Shown piece by piece: positions 31,703 to 42,700 of a stretch of DNA of 64,000 bases. The stretch spans positions 137,305 to 201,304 of the forward strand of contig CAWGVV010000002.1 in NCBI GenBank assembly GCA_963826125.1, read 5' to 3'. The first letter of the stretch is position 1, and each line of letters starts with the position of its first letter. Made by a program: the position numbers and the translations under genes. A model generated the notes under the pieces. The model made no database searches. It was not told the DNA's origin and saw only the letters and a list, made by a program, of their open reading frames with translations. Source of the stretch: an uncultured delta proteobacterium (lineage in GTDB: Bacteria > Desulfobacterota > Desulfarculia > JACQYL01 > CAWGVV01).

Positions 31703-31730
31703 TTCACACTACGTTAACATCAAATTAACA
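31703..31730 (+). promoter_or_regulatory. Three 11-bp-phased direct repeats (OmpR/PhoB-PhoP-type box)
   Basis: TTCACA-N5-TTAACA-N5-TTAACA at 31703, 31714 and 31725. Confidence 0.65.
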
Positions 31731-31822
31731 AACGCCGTTTATTTTAGTCCAATAGAAAAAAGAAATTCCCACCGGCGAACTCCCGCGGGAGAGTACTACG
31801 ATTGGAAAGGCAGGATAAATAC

Positions 31823-32194
31823 ATGCAATTTTACGTACATGAAGTTCCCGGGAGGCTTCGGGTAAAAATTCCAACCATAAAACACAACCCTGCAGGCGCC
31901 GACCGGGTGAAGGATATGATCGGCGGGCTCGGCGGGGTGCAGTCCGTTGCCGTCACGCACGTCACCGGCAGCGTTGTCGCCTATTTCGACTCCACCGCCA
32001 TCAGCTCCTCCGATATCCTCTCGACCCTGAAACAGAACGGCTACTTCGACGATTCCAGAGTCATTACCAACGAAGCCTATGTGAAAGACGCCGTGTCCAA
32101 GGCCGGTCAATCGGTGAGCCGAGTAATGATGAGCTGGTTACTGGGAGCCGCGTTGGAAGACACCGGACTGGGATTCCTAGCCGCGCTCATTTAA
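31823..32194 (+). CDS. HMA2-domain small protein (Fez-like)
   Basis: VHEVPGRLRVK...VTGSVV ferredoxin-like HMA fold without CxxC; hydrophobic C-terminus GLGFLAALI. Confidence 0.85.
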   Translation: MQFYVHEVPGRLRVKIPTIKHNPAGADRVKDMIGGLGGVQSVAVTHVTGSVVAYFDSTAISSSDILSTLKQNGYFDDSRVITNEAYVKDAVSKAGQSVSRVMMSWLLGAALEDTGLGFLAALI

Positions 32195-32436
32195 TTTCCT
32201 TTCTTCCTTCAGTTCCCGCGGGGCCAACCCGCTGAGATCCTTTACCCCTTCGCTCCCTTTTTCTCTCTTCCTTCATTTCTCATGAGGGGTTCCCTCATTT
32301 TTTTCTTCGGAGCTTCACCCGCGTCCGAACGCGCGGACTCATGTCCCGTCATCCAAGTCGGCAAAAGGAATTACGAAACGGGGATTCACCATCTCCTTCC
32401 GGGAGACGTTGCCCTCGCATATCGAAGGAAACCGCG

Positions 32437-32464
32437 CACCCCATCTCCTTCAGGAGATGGGGTG
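32437..32464. terminator. Perfect hairpin between convergent HMA2 and metK-like genes
   Basis: CACCCCATCTCC-TTCA-GGAGATGGGGTG; a degenerate copy lies near 32387-32410. Confidence 0.6.
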
Positions 32465-32523
32465 ATGGCTTTAACCTGCAGATGCCCGAAGGCGGTATTT
32501 TGGTAGGAAAGGGTCTGGGACCC

Positions 32524-33723
32524 TCACTTGGGAAGGTACTGGGCCAGCAGCTCCGCCTTGTCCGTCTTCTCCCAGGGCAGGTCCATGTCCGTTCTTCCGA
32601 AGTGGCCGTACGCCGCAAGGTTCTGGTAGAACCCCCGAGGATTGAGTCGCGGGAGGCGGCGCAGGTTGAGATCGCGCAGGATGGCGGCCAACCGAAAATC
32701 GAAGTGCCGTTCCACCAGTTCGGTGAGTTCGAGGTCGTCGAGTTTCCCCGTGCCATACGATTCCACCACCAGACTGACCGGACGGGTCAGCCCGATGGAG
32801 TAGCTGAGCATCACTTCGCATTCCTCCGCCAGGCCGGCGGCGACGATGTTCTTGGCCGCATAGCGTGCGGCATAGGCGCCCACGCGATCGATCCGGGTCG
32901 GGTCCTTGCCGCTCAGCGCATTGCCGCTCTGGCGCGAATATTCTCCATACGTGTCCACGTGGTTTTTTCTGCCCGTCAGCCCCGAATGGTGCGGCGGCCC
33001 ACCCATGAACACTCCGTCCGGATTGATGAAAATCCTCGTCTTTTCATCCGGCTTCACCGTCAACTCAGAAAAAACGGGGTCAATCACGGCCGTACGCAGG
33101 TCGTCGGAGAGAGTCTTCAGGTCGGGAGTTTTCAAATCCCGCTGGCTGGCCGTGATAGTCACGCTGTGGATGCGTCGGGGCCGGCGGTCTTCATATTCCA
33201 CCCCCACCTGTATTTTGCCGTCCGGCATGAGGTAGGGAAGAATTTTTTCTGTTCGAACGGTGTCCAGCCTGCGGGAAAGTTTCCGGGCGACCCAGATGGG
33301 GAACGGCAGGAACGTGGGCGACTGGTTGCAGGCAAACCCGAACAGGGTGACCTGGTGCTTCACCGGAATCTTTTCGATCTGTTCGTCGGACAGTTCGTGT
33401 TCGTTGAAAAGCGCATACTCGTCGGGCGGCGTTCCCACGGGAGAGCTGAGGATGCTGGTGCTTTTGGAATTGAAATCCTGCTGGTCGTAGCCGATGCGTT
33501 TGATCACCTTGCGCGCGACGTGCGACAGATCCACCTTGGCGCTCGTTGCGAACCGGGCGGCAATGAACACGATGGCGCTCGACACGGCGCATTCGGCCCG
33601 CACGCGGGCGGCCGGGTCCTGCATCAGAAAATGATCGACAATGGCGTCGCTGATCTGGTCGCACAGCTTGTCAGGATGGCCCTCGGTCACCGATTCCGAC
33701 GTGAACATGAAGTCTTTTCTCAT
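32524..33723 (-). CDS. metK: Divergent methionine adenosyltransferase (MetK) paralogue
   Basis: FTSESVTEGHPDK, DGKIQV, GLTGRK, SGKDPTRIDR and YGHFGR..PWE motifs; Met-binding motifs altered (see findings). Confidence 0.85.
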   Translation of the reverse strand: MRKDFMFTSESVTEGHPDKLCDQISDAIVDHFLMQDPAARVRAECAVSSAIVFIAARFATSAKVDLSHVARKVIKRIGYDQQDFNSKSTSILSSPVGTPPDEYALFNEHELSDEQIEKIPVKHQVTLFGFACNQSPTFLPFPIWVARKLSRRLDTVRTEKILPYLMPDGKIQVGVEYEDRRPRRIHSVTITASQRDLKTPDLKTLSDDLRTAVIDPVFSELTVKPDEKTRIFINPDGVFMGGPPHHSGLTGRKNHVDTYGEYSRQSGNALSGKDPTRIDRVGAYAARYAAKNIVAAGLAEECEVMLSYSIGLTRPVSLVVESYGTGKLDDLELTELVERHFDFRLAAILRDLNLRRLPRLNPRGFYQNLAAYGHFGRTDMDLPWEKTDKAELLAQYLPK

Positions 33724-36700
33724 AGTGTGTCCCGACTTTTTGTTTTTATCAGTTCATTCACGGTCAGGGACAGAAGAGAACTTCCGGCGATGACCGCCGC
33801 GTCCATCAACGCGGGCGTCGTTATTCCGAGGAGCCCCCTCAATCCGGGAATCACCATGGTGAGCGCCTGCAGCACCAGCGATCCACCCACGGCCAGGGTA
33901 AGGTATCCGTTGCGGGGAGGATGCTCCCGTGTGAAGATGCTGTGGTTCTCCGACCGGCACACGATCGCGTGCAGCAACTGACCGATGGTGAGACTCTGAA
34001 AGGCAATGGACGTAGCCTGCGCACCCAACCCGTACCGCGCCAGCCCGTAGAGGTACGCACCCAGCGTGGTTCCCGATATCACCGAGGATTCGACGACCAT
34101 CTTCCGGTAGTCGCGCCCCGAGAAGAGCGGAGCCTCGGGGTCCCGGGGCTTCCTTTCGAGGATGTCCGGTTCCGCCGCTTCCATGGAAAGGGCCAGCCCC
34201 GGAAAAATGTCCGATATGATGTTGATCCACAACAACTGCATGACGTTCAGCGGCGCGCCCACGCCCCCGGCGAGCGCCGCGAACATGACCATGATTTCGC
34301 TCAGATTGGTGGAAAGGAAGAAATGCACGGATTTCCGGATGTTGCTGTAGGTGACGCGGCCGTCACGTACGGCGATGATCAGCGTCTCCAGCCGGTCGTC
34401 TTCCAGCACCACGTCCGCCACTTCCCTGGCCACGTCGGTCCCGCTCAGGCCCATGGCGATTCCGATGTCCGCGGCCTTCAAGGCCGGTCCGTCGTTTATG
34501 CCGTCCCCGGTCATGGCCACGACCCGACCTACGGACTGCAACGCCTGGACGATTCGGAGTTTGTGGGCGGGGCTGACCCGGGAGTAGACATGCACTTTTT
34601 CGGCCAGCGCTTCCATCACCTCCGGGTTCACGGACATGAGTTCGGTGGAGTCGAGGATTTCCAACGGTTCGTTTCCGTTGAGATTGAGCCGACGGGCCAC
34701 GGCGTAAGCCGTGGGGCTCTGGTCGCCGGTGATCATGACGGTCCCCATGCCCGCTGCGTGGAACATCCGCACCAAGTCCTCCACGCCCTCCCGTATGGGG
34801 TCGGTCATGCCCACGATGCCCAGCCAGGTCATGTTGTCTTCCTCGTCGGAAGCGTCGCCCTCTCCGTTCGAATCGCGATAGGCCACGCCCAGGACGCGGA
34901 GCGCTTCACCGGCCATGCGGTCGTTTTCCGCCTCGATTTCCAGCCGGTCTTCATCGCCCAGCGGCACTCTGCGGCCGTCGTCATTCATCCACCAGGAACA
35001 CCGGGCCAGCACTTCCGGCGGGCTTCCCTTCATGGCCAGATACGTTCCGCCGATGGGCGCCGTGTGCAGGGTGGTCATAAACAGCCGGCTTTCGGCGCGG
35101 TGGGAGATCGAAAGGAGCGGGTATTCCTCCTTGAGAACCGATATGTCGATGCCCGAACTGATGGCGGTGTCGATGAGCGCGTTTTCGGTGGGAGAGCCGT
35201 GAAAGACGTAGCCCTCCTCATCCGTCTTTTTCTCCACCTGCGTTTCGTTGCACAGGGCGCACACCCTGAGGAGGTCCCCGATCTGCTCCATTCCCCGCGG
35301 ATCGACGGATTCGTTCCCCAGGAAGAAGCCGTTGTTCCTGATGTCGATCCGGCTGCCGCCGGAGTAAATCCGGACCACGGTCATGCGATTCATGGTGATG
35401 GTGCCGGTCTTGTCCAGGCACAACGTCTGTACCGCGCCCAGCGTTTCCACTGCCTGCAATTTCCGGATAAGCACCCGGTGCTTCTTCATGTTCTGGATGC
35501 CCAGGGCGAAGTTTACGGTGGCAGCGGCCGGGAGCCCTTCCGGCACCGCCGCCGCGGCCAGCGACACGGACATCCGCAGCATCTGTAAAAATCCGTAGCC
35601 GCGCAGCATGCCGATGGCGAACACCACTCCGCAAATGCCGCTGCACAGCACCACGAGTTGATCGCCGATCCGGCCGAGGCTCTTTTCAATGGGCGTTTCC
35701 GGCGTTTCCGTGCCTTCAAGCAGAATCTGCAATTTTCCGATTTCGGTGAACCTGCCCGTGGCGACCACCACGACCAGCCCTTCCCCGCCCGTCACCAGGG
35801 TGCCCATGTAGGCCATGTTGAACCGGTCGGCGATGGGAATGTTGATTCCTTCCAGGTCGCCAGCATACTTGAACACGGGCATGCTCTCGCCGGTGAGGGT
35901 GGATTCGTCGATGCTGAGGTGCGACGCCCTGAGCACCCGGCAGTCGGCCGGTACGTAGAACCCCGGTTTGAGCACCATGACGTCGCCGATGGCCACTTCT
36001 TCCACCAGGACCTGCATGGGTTCGCCGTCGCGGATGACTTCGGCGTGGTGGTGCACAAACCGTTTGAGGGATTGGATCGTCTTCTCCGCCCTGTTTTCGG
36101 TGACGAAGCCGATGACCGCGTTGGCCACGGTGACTCCCGCGATGATGGCCGCATCGAGCAGCCCGCCCGATACGATGGAAATTCCCGCCGCCACTCCCAG
36201 CAGGGCCACGGGCAACGACATGAACTGACCGGCGAACATGGCCCAGCGCGAACGGGGTTCCGCCTCGGGAAGCACGTTCAAACCGTAGCGGTCCACGCGC
36301 TCACGCGCGTCCAACGGACTGAGCCCCCGCTCGAAATCGGTTTCCAGCACCGAAAGAAGCGACTGGTTGTCCACCAGGTGCCAGGAGTTGTCCCTCCGTT
36401 CCTCGGTGGGGAACAGGAAGTGTTTCAATTTCTCGGGGATAAGGAGGTCGGCGACGTCGATGACGGCGCGCCGGATTTTCTTTTCCTTCGGAGGAGGCGG
36501 AGCGTCTTCTGTCTTCCGCTGTCTGAACGGGATGACGCGCGGGCGGGAAGGCGGTCCGTCGTCGGTATTTTCCGGGAGAATGCCGCGAATATACTCCTCA
36601 ACGTCCCAGTGGCGTACGTCGGGGGTGAACAGTACCAGGACGTTGCCGGTACCGATGTCGGCCCGCACACTCAGGACGTTGGGAAAGAAAGCGAGTTCCC

Positions 36701-36794
36701 GTTCCAGAAGGGCTTTCAGATACTCCGATTGCCGGAGCCCCCGAACCTTGTATCGTCCCCTTCCGGGGACTTTCGTGTGGAGCGGTTGTACCAT
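33720..36794 (-). CDS. P2A-type (Ca2+/Mn2+-like) P-type ATPase with N-terminal HMA2 domain
   Basis: TGES, PEGL, DKTGT, KGSPE, TGD, GDGINDGPAL, M5 STNLSE, M6 QLLWINIISD; N-terminal HTKVPGRGRYK..TGNVLV; ATGA overlap with the metK-like gene. Confidence 0.93.
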   Translation of the reverse strand: MVQPLHTKVPGRGRYKVRGLRQSEYLKALLERELAFFPNVLSVRADIGTGNVLVLFTPDVRHWDVEEYIRGILPENTDDGPPSRPRVIPFRQRKTEDAPPPPKEKKIRRAVIDVADLLIPEKLKHFLFPTEERRDNSWHLVDNQSLLSVLETDFERGLSPLDARERVDRYGLNVLPEAEPRSRWAMFAGQFMSLPVALLGVAAGISIVSGGLLDAAIIAGVTVANAVIGFVTENRAEKTIQSLKRFVHHHAEVIRDGEPMQVLVEEVAIGDVMVLKPGFYVPADCRVLRASHLSIDESTLTGESMPVFKYAGDLEGINIPIADRFNMAYMGTLVTGGEGLVVVVATGRFTEIGKLQILLEGTETPETPIEKSLGRIGDQLVVLCSGICGVVFAIGMLRGYGFLQMLRMSVSLAAAAVPEGLPAAATVNFALGIQNMKKHRVLIRKLQAVETLGAVQTLCLDKTGTITMNRMTVVRIYSGGSRIDIRNNGFFLGNESVDPRGMEQIGDLLRVCALCNETQVEKKTDEEGYVFHGSPTENALIDTAISSGIDISVLKEEYPLLSISHRAESRLFMTTLHTAPIGGTYLAMKGSPPEVLARCSWWMNDDGRRVPLGDEDRLEIEAENDRMAGEALRVLGVAYRDSNGEGDASDEEDNMTWLGIVGMTDPIREGVEDLVRMFHAAGMGTVMITGDQSPTAYAVARRLNLNGNEPLEILDSTELMSVNPEVMEALAEKVHVYSRVSPAHKLRIVQALQSVGRVVAMTGDGINDGPALKAADIGIAMGLSGTDVAREVADVVLEDDRLETLIIAVRDGRVTYSNIRKSVHFFLSTNLSEIMVMFAALAGGVGAPLNVMQLLWINIISDIFPGLALSMEAAEPDILERKPRDPEAPLFSGRDYRKMVVESSVISGTTLGAYLYGLARYGLGAQATSIAFQSLTIGQLLHAIVCRSENHSIFTREHPPRNGYLTLAVGGSLVLQALTMVIPGLRGLLGITTPALMDAAVIAGSSLLSLTVNELIKTKSRDTL

Positions 36795-36983
36795 TGGTTT
36801 CCGTTTGTTTTCCGAAGATGGAGGAGTTTCGCTTTCAGCGGGAAGGAGCGGTCCGGGCCGGTTTCCCCTGGCAAGCAGATTCAGCCGTCTTTGCCTGTTT
36901 ACCCGGACCGCATGAGGAATTCGTTAGCAGTACATGTAAAGGCTATTTTTCAAGCCTTTTCTCTTCGTATTGCGGGTTCCGGA

Positions 36984-37478
36984 TCAGATGATCGGTCCGT
37001 TGTTATGTTTTTCCATGAGCGATTTGGTGAAAACCCCGAAAGCGTACCAGAATGCGGTATACCAGGGCGGAAATTGCAGCCTGCCTCTCAATGCCTGGTA
37101 AATGCCCACTCCCACCAGGCCCGTGAAAACGGCCTCTCCCAGCCCCACTTCGCCGCCCGTAATGCTTTGCATCTTCCGGTTGGCGTCGAGAAGCGGAGAA
37201 ATGATCTTCTGCGCGAGGGGGACGGGCGTGCCCGCCTTCTTCTCCAGTTCGAAGAGCCCCTCTTTCCTGGCATAAGCGGCAATGTCCTCAACACCGGGCT
37301 CTCCCCCGACGATGAGCACGCTCGCTGAATGAGGATTCACCTGAACATATTCAAGAGAGCGAAGGGTTTCGAGCTTTTGTCGAACGGTTTCGAAGTAGCC
37401 GCTGTCCGCCCTTCGCTCCGTGATCTTGATTCTCACCCTTTGGTTCGTCCTGTGCACAACCTGTGCTTGGGGAAGCAT
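36984..37478 (-). CDS. HMA2-domain membrane protein (FezC-like)
   Basis: VVHRTNQRVRIK..NPHSASVLI, then GLVGVGIYQALRG and PPWYTAFWYAF membrane segments. Confidence 0.82.
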   Translation of the reverse strand: MLPQAQVVHRTNQRVRIKITERRADSGYFETVRQKLETLRSLEYVQVNPHSASVLIVGGEPGVEDIAAYARKEGLFELEKKAGTPVPLAQKIISPLLDANRKMQSITGGEVGLGEAVFTGLVGVGIYQALRGRLQFPPWYTAFWYAFGVFTKSLMEKHNNGPII

Positions 37479-37522
37479 ACCTGGATCCTCAATAGGGTGT
37501 TACGGTGTTTGCTGCTAGGGAC

Positions 37523-37789
37523 TTAGCCCTCCACTACCTCGACCTTTTTGGCCGCGTCGACTTCCGCCTTGGCTTCGGCCGCGATATCCTCGATCATTTC
37601 CTGCGTCTCGGCGCCGATCACTTTCCCCTTTTCAAAGAGCAGGTAACCGCCCTTGATGGCCGCCTTGGCCAAGGGCCTGAACGCGCCCGCCAGAACCGGG
37701 ATGATCACCGGAGCGACCAGCAGAGCGCCGACGCCCACCAAGAGACCCGTGCCCAGGCCGTTTTCCAAATCCAAACCCAAAATTTTCAT
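37523..37789 (-). CDS. DUF5132-family small GxxxG membrane protein (Fez/MamC-like)
   Basis: GLGTGLLVGVGALLVAP..RPLAKAAIKGG..EDIAAEAKAE; GGAGG RBS. Confidence 0.85.
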   Translation of the reverse strand: MKILGLDLENGLGTGLLVGVGALLVAPVIIPVLAGAFRPLAKAAIKGGYLLFEKGKVIGAETQEMIEDIAAEAKAEVDAAKKVEVVEG

Positions 37790-37943
37790 AACACACCTCC
37801 CAATTCATCCGTTTACCATTAATAATGAAGCACCGAACCTCTTCAGCGCGTAACGAGCGGATAAGCTTTTCTTTTTCGCGCTCGATTTTTCCTCGGGGCC
37901 TTTTTATTTCATGTAAATAGAACCCCATGTTTATGTAGCCCTA

Positions 37944-37960
37944 TGTTAAAAAGATGTCAA
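37944..37960 (-). promoter_or_regulatory. 11-bp-phased direct repeat / -35 element upstream of the DUF5132 operon
   Basis: Minus strand TTGACA-N5-TTAACA, the same pattern as 31703-31730. Confidence 0.55.
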
Positions 37961-38288
37961 CAGAATTATAATGGTGTAAGAAAAACAGCGAGAGAGCACT
38001 TTTTCCGTTGTCCTCCTCGGGACCCTTCTGTTACCATTCATGGTGGATTGCTTCTTTCAGGAGAAATTGCCGGGCATCGGCTAAAAGATAACCATGAGAA
38101 TGCAGCGGAAATGAGGCGGCGTCCCTTTGACGACCACTCCCCTGCGGCAGTTGTGGGTGAAACCTCCATGCCAACAGGATACGCTATCTTCCAAAGAGAA
38201 GACAATAGCTTCGTTTGATGAATACATTGTTAGCGTTGCAATAATTTTTTGTTAGATTTTTATTAGCATTCCAGCCTCGGAGGTATCA

Positions 38289-40529
38289 ATGAAACCACTC
38301 CAAGCAGCCTCCTTCCGCGTCGCCCACTCCGTGCCGGGCCGGATAAAACTCAAATCCCGCAGCCTTCGCTCCGCCCCCGCACTGGCGGACGAAGTCGAAT
38401 CGAACCTTTCCTCCATCGACTTCATCGACAGCGCGGCTGTTCGCAGAACCACGGGGTCCGTCATCATCGCCTACGACCGGCGCCGGTTCTCGCCCGAGAA
38501 CATCGTCGACCGGTTGGGCAAACACCTGGACATCCGCCCCCTGCCCGGCCGCGCACCCGTGTCCGAAACCGATGCCGAGGCCATGGAGTGGCAAACCATG
38601 TTCACGGGAGAAGTCTCGACGTCCAGACCGGTATTCGTCGTTCATCTGGTCAATCTGATCGCCCTGAGCGGAGTCCTGGCTTTTATTCTCGTCAAACGGT
38701 TCCTGTTCCGTTCATCCCTTTCGCAGAAAGCGCTGAGTCCGCTCGGCGGGATCGCCATGATCGCCTCCCTGCCGCTCCTCCTCCGCGCCTTGAAAGACCT
38801 GCGATCCACCGGCCGTTTCGGCCTCTTCCCCTTTCTGGTCATGGGCTGCTTCCTGGCCGTCTTCCTGGGGGAAGCCATCACCGCCATCGAGATTCTCTGG
38901 GTGCTTTCCCTCGGGCTGTTGCAGGAAGAGTATGCAACGGACCGTTCCCGCAGGGCGGTACGCGGGTTGTTCAGGATCACGGACAGCAATGTGGTCGTCC
39001 TGGTGGACGGCGCCGAAGTCGTGCTCCCCGTCTCCGGTCTCAAGATCGACGACGAAATCGTGCTGCGCTCCGGCGACAGAATTCCGGCCGACGGCGAGGT
39101 TATCCGAGGAGAAGCCCTGGTGGACGAAGCCCACATCACGGGGCGGTCGAATCCGGAATATCGAAGCGCCGGCAGCCGGTTGTACGCCGGAACCACGCTG
39201 TGGGAGGGAACCCTGTTCCTCCGCGCCGAAAAGGTCGGATCGGAGACGTATCTGGCGCGCATGCTGCGCATGGTGGAGGAATCCCTGGCCCGGCAGACCG
39301 AATCGGAAAAGAAGGCCGATGAACTCGCCCACCGCATGACCGCCACCGGTCTCGCGGCGACCGTCGGCACCCTGCTGCTCACCGGCAGCCTTTCCCGCGC
39401 TTTCTCCGTCATGCTGGTCATGACCTGCCCGTGCGCCACCGTGCTTTCCGCTTCCACCGCCGTGGCGGCGGCCATCGGCAACGCCGCGCGAAAAAACGTT
39501 CTGGTAAAGGGCGGAATCCACCTGGAACACATGAAGTACATCGACACCTATTGTTTCGACAAAACGGGCACCGTCACCGAGGACGTACCCTCCGTCATAG
39601 AAGTGGTGCCGCGCGCCGCGTGGCAGGACAGGGACACCATCCTCGGTCTGGCAGCCGCGGCCGAAAATGGAAGCAACCATCCCATGGCCAGGGCCCTGGA
39701 CGAAGAAACCCGCAATCGCTCCATCGACGTCCCAAAGGTGGACAAAACGGAAGCGGTGCTGGGCAGAGGCATACGGGCGGAGATGGGTGGAGAGCCGATT
39801 CTGGTGGGCAACGGCGCCTTCATGGAGGAAGAAGGCGTGAACGTCGCCTACTTCAAGTCAAAGGCCTCCAGTCACCAGGATGCGGGCGAAACCGTGCTGT
39901 ACGTGGCCCGCAAAGGCAAACCGCAGGGCATGATCGTGCTTTCCAATCAGCCCAGAGCCGAGGCGGGCAAGGCCCTCACCTGGCTGAAAACGCATACCGG
40001 AGCCCGCATCTGCCTCCTGAGCGGCGACACCGAACCCCTGGTGCGCTCCCTATCCGGCCGGCTCGGCTTCGACGAATTCAAGGCCCCCATGCTGGGGGAG
40101 GAAAAGGCGCTGTTCATCGAGAAGTTGGAAAGCGCGGGGCGCCGGGTGGCCATGATCGGGGACGGAATCAACGACGCACTGGCGCTCTCCAAGGCCACCA
40201 TCGGCATCGGCATGGGCGCGGGCGGCTCCGAGGTGGCCATCGAAGCTTCCGACGTGGCGCTGGTCAAGGACGACCTCATGGGACTCGTCTTCCTGCACCG
40301 GCTGAGCGAACGGATGATGAAAACCATCGAGCAGAATTTCTGGATCGCCAACGCTACCAACATCGTCGGCATCGTCTGCGGGGGACTGGGCTGGTTTCCC
40401 CCGGTCATGGCGGGGGTTCTCCACGTGAGCCACACCATGGCCATCATGGCCAATTCGAGCCGACTCCTTTCCTGGAACCCGGCTCTTCCCGCGGATGAGG
40501 AGATTGCGGACGCCGAAGCCGCGGACTGA
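38289..40529 (+). CDS. P1B-type heavy-metal P-type ATPase with HMA2 N-terminus (ferrosome FezP/FezB-like)
   Basis: VAHSVPGRIKLK..TGSV, CPC in M4, DKTGT, HP, GDGINDALAL, LHVSHT..NS in M6; the A-domain motif is TGRS. Confidence 0.9.
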   Translation: MKPLQAASFRVAHSVPGRIKLKSRSLRSAPALADEVESNLSSIDFIDSAAVRRTTGSVIIAYDRRRFSPENIVDRLGKHLDIRPLPGRAPVSETDAEAMEWQTMFTGEVSTSRPVFVVHLVNLIALSGVLAFILVKRFLFRSSLSQKALSPLGGIAMIASLPLLLRALKDLRSTGRFGLFPFLVMGCFLAVFLGEAITAIEILWVLSLGLLQEEYATDRSRRAVRGLFRITDSNVVVLVDGAEVVLPVSGLKIDDEIVLRSGDRIPADGEVIRGEALVDEAHITGRSNPEYRSAGSRLYAGTTLWEGTLFLRAEKVGSETYLARMLRMVEESLARQTESEKKADELAHRMTATGLAATVGTLLLTGSLSRAFSVMLVMTCPCATVLSASTAVAAAIGNAARKNVLVKGGIHLEHMKYIDTYCFDKTGTVTEDVPSVIEVVPRAAWQDRDTILGLAAAAENGSNHPMARALDEETRNRSIDVPKVDKTEAVLGRGIRAEMGGEPILVGNGAFMEEEGVNVAYFKSKASSHQDAGETVLYVARKGKPQGMIVLSNQPRAEAGKALTWLKTHTGARICLLSGDTEPLVRSLSGRLGFDEFKAPMLGEEKALFIEKLESAGRRVAMIGDGINDALALSKATIGIGMGAGGSEVAIEASDVALVKDDLMGLVFLHRLSERMMKTIEQNFWIANATNIVGIVCGGLGWFPPVMAGVLHVSHTMAIMANSSRLLSWNPALPADEEIADAEAAD

Positions 40530-40549
40530 GGAAACACCGCGAGTCGATC

Positions 40550-40576
40550 CGGGGGGGCGCGTACCGCGCCCCCCCG
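40550..40576. terminator. GC-rich hairpin after the P1B ATPase
   Basis: CGGGGGGGCGCG-TAC-CGCGCCCCCCCG. Confidence 0.6.
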
Positions 40577-40606
40577 CCTTCGAAACGACATCCCGTTTGC
40601 GTGGAA

Positions 40607-40847
40607 TCAGCGGGCCGAATACCGGTCGTGCAGATACACGGCGAAACTTGCGGCAGGTGCGCCGGCAGCGGTGCTTGTGCACTGGCGATGCGGTCCGGCA
40701 GGTCCCCCAGCGCCACTACCGGCACGTCGCCCACCTTCCCCTCCGCCGCATCGACAGCATCGGGGCATACGAACAGGGGCTGGGGCAGATATTCGGTCTC
40801 GTAGCCTTTCCGGATAATCATGGAGAGAAAGTGGAAGACCTGCCACA
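40607..40847 (-). pseudogene. Frameshifted 3' fragment duplicating the C-terminus of the NERD-like gene at 41908-42618
   Basis: About 88% nt identity (hand alignment) to 41908-42149; 1-nt deletion at AAACTT(T)GC near 40649; no 5' half. Confidence 0.9.
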
Positions 40848-41141
40848 TATCATAAGGTTTGAAGTAATAGTACCGAACCCAGTGAAAATGGGCGTTTTCT
40901 CTACTAATTCTTCCACCAGATGCTTCTAAGCACGCCATCCTCATTCGTACATTTATTTCTAAAGTTAATCGTTAAATACTCCGACAAAATACACACGCAG
41001 CCGTTATTACTGCATGCACACTCTCGTTTGGAGAATGGACGGAGGTGAGGCATCATCGTCGCGGACACCTTTTGCCTAAGTTTGGAAATGATGGACGAAC
41101 CGCGCTCTCAGCGTATTCACTAACCAAGAACGGAGGACTGA

Positions 41142-41609: not shown

Positions 41610-41907
41610 ATCGATAAAATAAACGCATGGTGAACCCCTCCACACGTTCGCCATGCGCCTTTCATATTTCCCGGGGGAACTATTTTAATGGATTTCCCAT
41701 GGCAGAGGGCGGATTGATCTCGATCCGCTCTCATGTTCATGTGCAGGTTTGCCAAGCACCACTTCCCCTTTTTCGTCAGTGCGTTTGCACTGACGGACAT
41801 GAATATCGCTCCTCCGAACGCATTCGGCAAAGTAATCGACCGGCATCCTTTGGTTATCTCACAAGTCAGACGGTCCGGGGATGTTTGAACCTCCGATTTT
41901 CCCCCGC

Positions 41908-42618
41908 CTATCGGGATGCGTATCGATCGTTGAGGTAGACGGCGAAACTTTGCGGCAGGTGTTCCGGCAGTGGTGCTTGTGCGGCGGCGATGCGGTCCGG
42001 CAGGTCCCCCAGCGCCACTACCGGCACGTCGCCCACCTTCCCCTCGGCCGCATCGACAACATCGGGGCATACGAACAGGGGCTGGGGCAGATATTCGGTC
42101 TTGTAGCCTTTCCGGATCACCATCGAGAGAAAATGGCAGACCTGCCACAGCTTGCGAGCGGCCGTCGCGGGCTCGTCGGCGGCGGGGAAAAACCGGCCGT
42201 CCTTCCGCACCACTTCGCTTCCCAGGAGCGCCCGGCGGATAACGAACAGTCCGCCGGGGCCGATCACCAGATGATTGCAATGGAAAAACTCGAACTGCAC
42301 CTCGTGGAAGACGAAGTAACGATCGTCCAGTGCCGCCAGGACTGCGGCGATGCGTTGGTTGGCCGCCAGCAGATGTTCGTATTCCGTTTTCCGGAAAATC
42401 TTTTTCCACGCCATGGGGGTGATCTTCAGGGACGAGACGACGATGAAGAAACCGACCACGACGGTGGTGGGAATGATGACGGACGCCTCGCTGCGCCAGT
42501 CCCTGGAGGAGATGAGAAGAACGACGACGGTCACGCTGAGTAAGCTGAGGAGCAGGGCCATGCGCTTCAGCGAATGGGCCTTGACGTTGCTTCCGGGATA
42601 CCCCTGTACGTATGCCAT
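41908..42618 (-). CDS. Membrane-anchored NERD-like domain protein
   Basis: Two N-terminal TM segments, then LDDRYFVFHEV..NHLVIGPGGLFVI; GAGGAG RBS before ATG 42618. Confidence 0.7.
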   Translation of the reverse strand: MAYVQGYPGSNVKAHSLKRMALLLSLLSVTVVVLLISSRDWRSEASVIIPTTVVVGFFIVVSSLKITPMAWKKIFRKTEYEHLLAANQRIAAVLAALDDRYFVFHEVQFEFFHCNHLVIGPGGLFVIRRALLGSEVVRKDGRFFPAADEPATAARKLWQVCHFLSMVIRKGYKTEYLPQPLFVCPDVVDAAEGKVGDVPVVALGDLPDRIAAAQAPLPEHLPQSFAVYLNDRYASR

Positions 42619-42700
42619 TTTTCCGGTCTCCTCCTCGGTTCGATCCCGGCGGACCATGGATGGCGGCCGAATACCGACGATCCGGCCGCCATGCGGTTCA

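Follow-up and report, generated by a model that had tools for sequence, protein, structure and literature searches.

A conserved gene cluster pairing a CoBaHMA-tagged P2A-type ATPase with a MetK paralogue suggests an undescribed bacterial system for handling calcium-like metals

The stretch analyzed here, 64,000 nt of contig CAWGVV010000002.1 from an uncultured delta proteobacterium (hereafter the window), carries at 31.8-40.5 kb a cluster of six open reading frames (ORFs), in which a P2A-type P-type ATPase with an N-terminal CoBaHMA domain is directly followed by a paralogue of MetK, the S-adenosylmethionine (SAM) synthetase, that we call MetK2. The six genes form a real, conserved module, and the conserved operon at its core is suggestive of a bacterial system, as yet undescribed, that handles or stores calcium-like metals. 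Our preferred reading, to which we give a probability of slightly below one half (about 0.48), is that the module is a sibling of the ferrosome (fez) clusters and encodes a Ca2+/Mn2+ pump that is organized in a membrane domain or vesicle and works with MetK2. The six genes are as follows.

31823..32194 (alternative start 31802), plus strand: CoBaHMA1, 123 amino acids (aa); Pfam HMA_2, 38.7 bits (cut-off 30)
32524..33723, minus strand: MetK2, a MetK-fold paralogue of 399 aa with the full Pfam MetK domain set
33720..36794, minus strand: P2A-type P-type ATPase, 1024 aa, with the full Pfam domain set of P2-type pumps
36984..37478, minus strand: CoBaHMA-hairpin protein, 164 aa; HMA_2, 36.5 bits over model positions 9-152 (cut-off 30)
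37523..37789, minus strand: DUF5132 protein, 88 aa; Pfam DUF5132 (PF17195), 35.1 bits (cut-off 25)
38289..40529, plus strand: P1B-type ATPase, 746 aa, with the full Pfam domain set of P1B-type pumps and an N-terminal CoBaHMA domain

A sequence-only reading of the same DNA had described this set and arrangement of genes, and both stand, with the ORFs at the claimed places and the Pfam domain sets confirmed. Judged by gene orientation, there would be three transcription units, with CoBaHMA1 and the main operon transcribed convergently. The stop of the P2A gene and the start of the MetK2 gene overlap by 4 nt. The start of CoBaHMA1 is taken as the ATG at 31823, which agrees with its orthologues; the protein is Cys-free, and its C-terminal tail (residues 106-123) is weakly hydrophobic by hydropathy.

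Conservation of the pump-MetK2 pair

Conservation of the linkage was examined in two samples that have no locus in common. The first, a MetK2-seeded scan with one genome per species, gave 31 loci, 30 with a MetK2-type gene (60-79% identical) and one with a canonical metK (39%). Of the 30 MetK2 loci, 28 have an orthologue of the P2A pump (49-69% identical) immediately upstream in the same orientation; one of the two remaining loci has no upstream DNA, and the other has a truncated MetK2 and no pump. The second sample was drawn with the HMA_2 model from 301 genomes of the phylum of the window, 47 of which match, and comprises all 26 HMA_2 matches at the start of open frames of 1010-1180 aa. Here, a MetK2-type gene (56-70% identical) directly follows the tagged pump frame in 23/26 cases, and the three frames without MetK2 are divergent pump paralogues, 36-41% identical. 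The estimated gap between pump and MetK2 genes is at most 3 nt in 22/28 loci of the first sample and 10/23 of the second.

The smaller genes recur in the same surroundings. DUF5132 is found upstream in 21 of the 23 loci of the first sample that have enough upstream sequence, and in 21/23 loci of the second; orthologues of the CoBaHMA-hairpin protein are encoded upstream of the P2A gene in 18/23 and 14/23 loci, respectively, while orthologues of CoBaHMA1 (33-46% identity) lie beside the cluster in 12/30 and 11/23. The P2A-MetK2 loci belong to Desulfobacterota and heterocystous cyanobacteria, with the module occurring in about 8% and 5% of the sampled genomes, respectively. A MetK2-type gene is present in 14 of 251 sampled cyanobacterial genomes, and the pair is found there too (loci L011, L013 and L037); Chlorogloeopsis fritschii PCC 6912 has two MetK2 copies, each downstream of a CoBaHMA-tagged pump frame. 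Given two independent samples and the occurrence in cyanobacteria, the P2A-MetK2 linkage is as strong as gene order can show. The sequence-only reading had stated that it would fail if the pair were not conserved together with HMA2/DUF5132 genes in other genomes; since this pairing is strongly conserved, the reading withstands that comparison.

Candidate fusions of the two proteins were considered and rejected. Three of 334 longer proteins (P0122, P0123 and P0125) join both domain sets, each through a different internal deletion that has removed part of the C-terminal membrane region of the pump and part, or the very start, of MetK2, and these may be deletion variants or assembly artefacts. 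Separately, a MetK2 gene (L036:10001-11183) and a P2A pump gene (L075:6996-10147) match only in several frame-shifted pieces, as pseudogenes or sequences with errors would.

MetK2, the pump and the CoBaHMA domains

MetK2 scores 364.5 bits against TIGR01034 (cut-off 309.4, passed), for which the housekeeping metK on the other contig scores 592.7 bits, and the two proteins are 43% identical. Members of the MetK2 subfamily are 56-79% identical across two phyla, and the best 120 database matches of MetK2, at 65-75% identity, include named proteins from Desulfobacterota and Nostoc. For a survey of residues, 167 distinct members were aligned to Escherichia coli MetK, which provides the numbering. 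The catalytic His14 is conserved, as are the ligands of Mg and phosphate (Asp16, Lys17, Arg244, Lys245, Lys265, Asp271) and Asp163, which binds the ribose, with Lys165.

The sequence-only reading had called this MetK altered, and the alteration lies on the methionine side of the pocket. In E. coli MetK, Glu55 and Asp238 bind the amino group of methionine, and Gln98 and Lys269 its carboxylate (PMC1282579, PMC3853416). Across the subfamily, residue 55 is Arg in 141 and His in 19 of the 167 members, residue 98 is Leu, Phe, Ser or Met and mostly hydrophobic, and Asp238 and Lys269 are replaced by His and Arg, respectively, in 167/167; the copy in the window has R, T, H and R at positions 55, 98, 238 and 269. 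Residue 118 is changed as well, from Asp to Asn, Ser or Thr, and to His in the window. All named methionine contacts are thus replaced, and the two acidic ones are now basic. We infer that ATP and its triphosphate chain are still bound by MetK2 but that methionine is not used, and it seems almost certain from these residues that the subfamily does not make SAM from methionine.

Among proteins of solved structure, human SPCA1 (479 bits) is the best match for the P2A pump and Listeria LMCA1 (468 bits) comes next, both ahead of SERCA. The DKTGT, TGES and TGDGxND motifs are present, and the motifs VPEGLPA in M4, STNLSE in M5 and WIN[LI]ISD in M6 (WINIISD in the window) are conserved in 46 orthologues. 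By analogy with SERCA, we take the Glu of PEGLP in M4 together with the Asn and Asp of M6 to form Ca site II, and the M5 Asn/Glu and M8 Glu to form site I; the pump has Gln at the position of SERCA Glu908 in M8, and its site I is incomplete. This configuration agrees with a pump for Ca2+ or Mn2+ in which site II is complete, and Ca or Mn as the cargo, as the sequence-only reading had it, would follow from the conserved Ca-site residues only.

The Ca-site residues are lost in eight divergent paralogues without MetK2. A second CoBaHMA-tagged P2-type ATPase paralogue (34-39% identical), without a MetK2 partner, is often found near the main operon (L015:8211-11165, L016:12945-15740, L017:13135-15957 and L020:12805-15528; also in L027, L028, L030, L051 and L062). 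It keeps DKTGT and TGES and has lost the Ca-site residues (M4 IPAGLS, no M6 Asp).

The sequence-only reading had recognized one and the same Cys-free, HMA-like module at the N-terminus of four of the proteins, and the translations agree: the motifs HEVPGRLR, HTKVPGRGR, HRTNQRVR and HSVPGRIK, of the general form H-x(2-4)-[GQ]R-x-[RK], are all there, and none of the four proteins has a Cys in its first 80 residues. The CoBaHMA domain was described as an HMA-like fold without CxxC, with an extra N-terminal strand beta0 carrying a conserved His and with conserved basic residues on beta1/beta2, to which it owes its name, and was first seen in calcyanin, a marker of cyanobacterial intracellular amorphous calcium carbonate (PMC8890360). 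With the conserved His, Arg and Arg/Lys present, no Cys, and a fold judged from sequence, all four modules can be assigned to this domain (Pfam HMA_2, PF19991). The family searches that the sequence-only reading had proposed as a check bring HMA_2 over its gathering cut-off of 30 in three of the proteins (38.7, 36.5 and 47.1 bits), and the full-length match of the CoBaHMA-hairpin protein covers the CoBaHMA domain plus a C-terminal hydrophobic hairpin. The N-terminus of the P2A pump (domain at about residues 1-75, window 36570-36794) gives 17.1 bits alone (E 0.0053), with its orthologues at 31-39 bits, and it aligns with the other three modules over H-x-x-[PN]-[GQ]-R-x-[RK]-x-K. The linker that joins the CoBaHMA domain to the pump body is variable, and no docking motif conserved within it was seen. 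A co-fold prediction of P2A residues 1-80 with DUF5132 residues 33-88 scored 0.27 against a mark of 0.32 and counts neither way.

Kinship with ferrosome clusters and genomic surroundings

FezB is a P1B-6 ATPase with D[Y/F]SCA in transmembrane segment (TM) 4 and HNxxT in TM6 (Grant et al., bioRxiv 10.1101/2020.01.10.902569). The same account reports N-terminal motifs rich in R on FezB, FezC and related pumps, proteins with GxxxG, among them FezA, and, in larger fez clusters, a second pump, FezH (bioRxiv 10.1101/2020.01.10.902569). The sequence-only reading saw no FezB-type ATPase in the window; this holds, and the motifs (D[YF]SC in TM4, HNxxT in TM6) are also absent from all 7 P-type ATPases of the 6.0-Mb genome. 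Therefore, the cluster is not a fez cluster.

Its accessory parts nevertheless appear to be those of fez clusters, a kinship that the sequence-only reading had proposed. The phylum sample contains, among frames of about 700-800 aa with an HMA_2 tag, 11 FezB-type pumps (TM4 D[YF][SG]C, TM6 HNxxT), of which the HMA_2 model found 10 at E <= 1e-4; four of the 11 exceed the family cut-off, one of them solely through the addition of neighbouring matches within its frame. Since FezB-type pumps are matched by HMA_2, the R-rich motif of the fez proteins can be identified, at the level of sequence, as the CoBaHMA domain. Further, the P1B pump of the window has TCPCAT in TM4 and HVSHT in TM6, and in a quick tree the pumps with [AS]CPCA[TS] in TM4 and H-x-x-H-[TSA] in TM6 form one clade (SH-aLRT 100) that holds the window P1B, six other pumps near P2A-MetK2 operons and four pumps beside FezB-type genes. 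This would be a FezH-like clade, a name given from the described position of FezH beside FezB rather than from a named FezH sequence.

The third part is the DUF5132 protein, in which an N-terminal GxxxG-rich TM segment (GLGTGLLVG) and a basic stretch precede an acidic helix with the invariant residues E61, D68, E72 and E76, and which appears as a single-pass protein with an amphipathic helix. In four loci, FezB-type genes have a small ORF immediately upstream, and a similar ORF that is not directly upstream occurs in a fifth; the encoded proteins show a GxxxG segment and, after it, ...VQKAVVKG...EEVKEQIEDxKAE. Such ORFs score 19-21 bits with the DUF5132 model, below its cut-off, in 3/5 fez genomes. 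By hhalign, the ORFs align with 35 DUF5132 orthologues over 62 columns at 95.6% probability (E 1.2e-8), while controls with a reversed alignment and 20 column shuffles reached 0.8% at most. The proteins in the FezA position, chosen by position and not by a match to FezA itself, are thus assigned from sequence as remote homologues of DUF5132.

Taken together, these comparisons indicate that three types of accessory part are common by descent to the module and the fez clusters, with a different central pump, and that the module is probably an evolutionary sibling of the fez clusters in which a Ca2+/Mn2+-type pump and MetK2 replace FezB. We found no account in the literature searched of the P2A-MetK2 pairing, of the identity of the fez motif with CoBaHMA, or of a relation between FezA and DUF5132, and a catalogue of CoBaHMA architectures or the supplementary tables on ferrosomes may list such architectures.

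A second analogy, on the calcium side, is offered by Microcystis aeruginosa PCC 7806, in which ccyA and the gene of a Ca2+/H+ exchanger (cax) have as neighbours two DUF5132 genes, a gene for a CoBaHMA domain plus helical hairpin and a small CoBaHMA gene, and several of these DUF5132/CoBaHMA genes are co-expressed with ccyA (bioRxiv 10.1101/2024.07.07.602159). No ORF examined near the cluster of the window resembles calcyanin (ccyA, with its (GlyZip)3 C-terminus), as judged by inspection without a calcyanin model or sequence. Ca- and P-rich inclusions were reported in C. fritschii strains (PMC8890360), which is weak support for a compartment, such inclusions being common.

Further genes recur in other loci. 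In 7 loci (L014:11224-12032; also L008, L009, L010, L015, L058 and L059), genes for a 209-aa ATPase resembling ParA/MinD and for a basic protein of 72 aa with a hydrophobic C-terminal segment stand between MetK2 and other CoBaHMA genes; the pair recalls systems that position cargo and hints at a positioned structure. In 18 loci (for example, L041:6781-7473), the gene of a 230-aa repeat protein rich in Gly, Ala, Val and Glu, which matches no Pfam family, separates the CoBaHMA-hairpin gene from that of the P2A pump. Beside the cluster in 17 loci (L056:8586-8930), there is a gene for a protein of 114 aa whose two CxxC pairs resemble a zinc ribbon (Pfam Zn_ribbon_InsA, 28.4 bits) and which may be a regulator. 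In the cyanobacterial loci L011 (6165-6737) and L013 (Chlorogloeopsis), DUF5132 is fused to the hairpin part of HMA_2 (positions 89-152), and the Chlorogloeopsis loci have a second DUF5132 gene with a long Thr/Glu/Lys-rich repeat tail. The genome of C. fritschii PCC 6912 (G301) has 18 HMA_2 matches, with tandem CoBaHMA repeats in frames of 389-767 aa (C1:5014698-5017491) and, at 6.54-6.55 Mb, frames of 663-975 aa that carry the tag. Two other recurring genes, recognized by eye, may reflect lineage synteny only: one for the ATP-binding protein of an ABC transporter, resembling PhnC, near the cluster in 9 loci (L016:3198-4082), and one resembling ArsC or a low-molecular-weight phosphatase, in 7 loci (L007:2524-2979).

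In the 6.0-Mb genome, HMA_2 and DUF5132 matches occur only in this cluster, DUF5132 as a single copy. The flanking genes do not look like genes for the handling of metals; they are amt, glnD and those for a cupin, a PhoH/PIN ATPase, an sCache protein, a permease and an acetyl-CoA hydrolase. Three non-coding features were noted within the cluster.

32282..32298, plus strand: terminator-like hairpin and T-run 3' of CoBaHMA1, a consensus match only
32437..32464, minus strand: 13-bp perfect inverted repeat, 60-87 nt past the MetK2 stop
37790..38288, no strand: AT-rich divergent intergenic region of 499 bp between the DUF5132 operon and the P1B gene

The inverted repeat may mark the end of the operon. 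Terminator-like sites are not in excess in the region (15 found, 11.1 expected from shuffles), the sigma-70 promoter scan gave 0 sites and is uninformative, an Rfam scan found no riboswitch or other RNA within the cluster, and no known regulator site was recognized in the intergenic regions inspected. Beyond the cluster, the ORFs 40444-40944 and 41908-42657, both on the minus strand and neither with a Pfam match, have in common a near-identical stretch of about 60 residues (…FLSM[IV]IRKGY.TEYLPQPLFVCPD…GDLPDRIA…) and look like a duplicated gene with one copy truncated; between them, at 41612-41687, lies a sub-threshold Rfam match to ctRNA_pND324 (39.2 bits, cut-off 45).

Competing explanations and comparison with known systems

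In the reading that we prefer, the core operon encodes a DUF5132 membrane protein, a CoBaHMA-hairpin membrane protein, the CoBaHMA-tagged P2A ATPase and MetK2, the last translationally coupled to the pump; the small CoBaHMA protein with a hydrophobic tail is a frequent companion and the CoBaHMA-tagged, FezH-like P1B pump an optional one. The DUF5132 and CoBaHMA-hairpin proteins might mark or shape a membrane domain or vesicle, at which the basic CoBaHMA N-domains would hold the pumps. Pumps of the P2A family export a cation from the cytosol, with H+ taken up in return. By analogy, the pump here would move Ca2+ (or Mn2+) from the cytosol to the lumen in exchange for H+, whereby the cation would be concentrated and the lumenal pH raised. 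MetK2, its pocket switched from acidic to basic, may either supply an ATP-derived product or regulate the pump. The organelle, the transported metal and the phosphate mineral of the sequence-only reading, like its view of HMA2 as an addressing tag, are hypothetical.

Several points weigh against this reading. The module is known here from genes alone, and the usual role of a P2A pump in bacteria is efflux across the plasma membrane. With the NCBIfam equivalogs for PMR1-type (TIGR01522, 600.3 vs. 798.3) and SERCA-type (TIGR01116, 504.8 vs. 703.4) pumps, the scores of the pump do not reach the cut-offs, and so the ion is not settled by them. A P1B pump stands beside the core in only about 7 of 51 loci, and the window has neither the ParA-like nor the repeat-protein gene. 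Within approximately 10 kb on either side of the cluster, no gene for calcyanin, a ferritin-like protein, carbonic anhydrase, polyphosphate kinase, Feo or Fur is present. Further, the authors who named CoBaHMA are cited as having proposed a regulatory, lipid-binding role for it, not one in addressing.

The main alternative, less probable than the preferred reading yet a real possibility, is that the P2A ATPase is a plasma-membrane efflux or homeostasis pump for Ca2+/Mn2+ with accessory regulators and no organelle. The CoBaHMA domain would then be autoinhibitory or lipid-sensing, the DUF5132 and CoBaHMA-hairpin proteins would serve as small subunits with a regulatory function, much as single-pass regulators do for SERCA, and MetK2 would be a metabolic sensor or regulator. 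Such a system is consistent with the plasma-membrane pump LMCA1 being among the nearest solved relatives, with the published hypothesis that CoBaHMA domains act in regulation via anionic lipids, with a single-pass DUF5132 protein that has an amphipathic helix, and with the lack of any mineral-specific gene in the window. However, a simple efflux pump leaves an obligate and strongly conserved MetK paralogue unexplained, ParA-like positioning genes are embedded in 7 loci, and the three types of accessory part are homologous to parts of fez clusters, and these clusters were shown to be needed for a membrane-bound organelle (bioRxiv 10.1101/2020.01.10.902569). The same accessory genes also stand beside ccyA in a bacterium that forms CaCO3 inclusions (bioRxiv 10.1101/2024.07.07.602159).

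A more specific proposal, and a rather unlikely one in our judgement, is a membrane organelle that stores Ca2+/Mn2+ and is a sister of the ferrosome, in which FezA/DUF5132 and CoBaHMA scaffolds would recruit the P2A pump instead of FezB and MetK2, the charge of its substrate pocket reversed, would run a new ATP-dependent reaction. This reaction could be the transfer of an adenosyl group to an anionic substrate or the production of tripolyphosphate or pyrophosphate, and its product might stabilize or regulate an amorphous mineral.

It is improbable that the module instead loads inclusions of calcium carbonate, similar to intracellular amorphous calcium carbonate, rather than a phosphate mineral, with the H+-countertransporting P2A pump alkalinizing the lumen. 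DUF5132 and CoBaHMA genes do adjoin, and are co-expressed with, ccyA and cax in Microcystis (bioRxiv 10.1101/2024.07.07.602159), and the module is present in C. fritschii, a ccyA carrier; yet no ccyA-like or carbonic anhydrase gene is found in the window or within 10 kb in L011, and so few as 14/251 cyanobacterial genomes have MetK2. An ordinary iron-phosphate ferrosome cluster, to which the CoBaHMA tags, the small GxxxG protein and the FezH-clade P1B pump would be appropriate, is already contradicted by the whole genome lacking the P1B-6 pump FezB, by the lack of iron-homeostasis genes nearby and by the Ca-type site of the main pump, and hardly deserves consideration. Least credible of all is a chance juxtaposition with a normal second SAM synthetase, as passing the TIGR01034 cut-off (364.5 vs. 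309.4) might suggest, for it is already contradicted by synteny, with P2A and MetK2 adjacent in 51 loci of two phyla, and by the replacement of all four methionine-contacting residues, two of them invariantly.

Ferrosomes and intracellular calcium carbonates are two recently recognized storage compartments of bacteria whose assembly is not understood, and the cluster links both. The CoBaHMA tag, the DUF5132/FezA-like protein and the CoBaHMA-hairpin protein, three types of accessory part, accompany alike an iron pump, a Ca2+/H+ exchanger and, in the window, a Ca-type ATPase. This points to a general set of parts by which cation transporters would be addressed to a membrane compartment. The MetK2 subfamily, large and strongly conserved, is a candidate for a new enzyme activity tied to a P-type pump. 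If the module sequesters Ca, Mn or P, it could matter for the geochemistry of sediments and fresh waters.

Compared with fez clusters, the module has the same CoBaHMA N-terminal tag on pumps and small proteins, a small GxxxG membrane protein (the FezA-position ORF there, DUF5132 in the window) and, as a putative counterpart of FezH, a second P1B pump of the CPC / HxxH(T/S) clade. Unlike in fez clusters, the operon pump is P2A and Ca-type in a genome without FezB, an obligate MetK paralogue is present, and iron-homeostasis genes are absent nearby; the fez organelle has been shown, whereas the window system is a prediction from its genes. The ccyA neighbourhood of Microcystis likewise has DUF5132 (TM plus long helix), CoBaHMA-hairpin and small CoBaHMA genes next to a calcium transporter, a function that is putative for the window, but its transporter is a Ca2+/H+ exchanger and not an ATPase, and it has calcyanin and no MetK paralogue.

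With SPCA1/PMR1-type pumps and LMCA1, the pump of the window has in common the Ca-site residues of M4 (PEGLP) and M6 (N..D) and the DKTGT/TGES/TGDGxND motifs. It differs from them in the extra N-terminal CoBaHMA domain with a linker of about 60 residues, in an M5 that keeps SERCA-like N and E, in the M8 Q at E908 and in falling below the NCBIfam equivalog cut-offs. Finally, MetK2 appears to retain the three-domain fold of E. coli MetK (PDB 1RG9 family) together with H14, D16, K17, D163, K165, R244, K245, K265 and D271, whereas E55, Q98, D118, D238 and K269 are replaced, GAGDQG is missing, the gating-loop region is longer and 6-7 residues are inserted near the C-terminus; and unlike MetK, it is encoded beside a P2A pump (28/30 and 23/26 loci).

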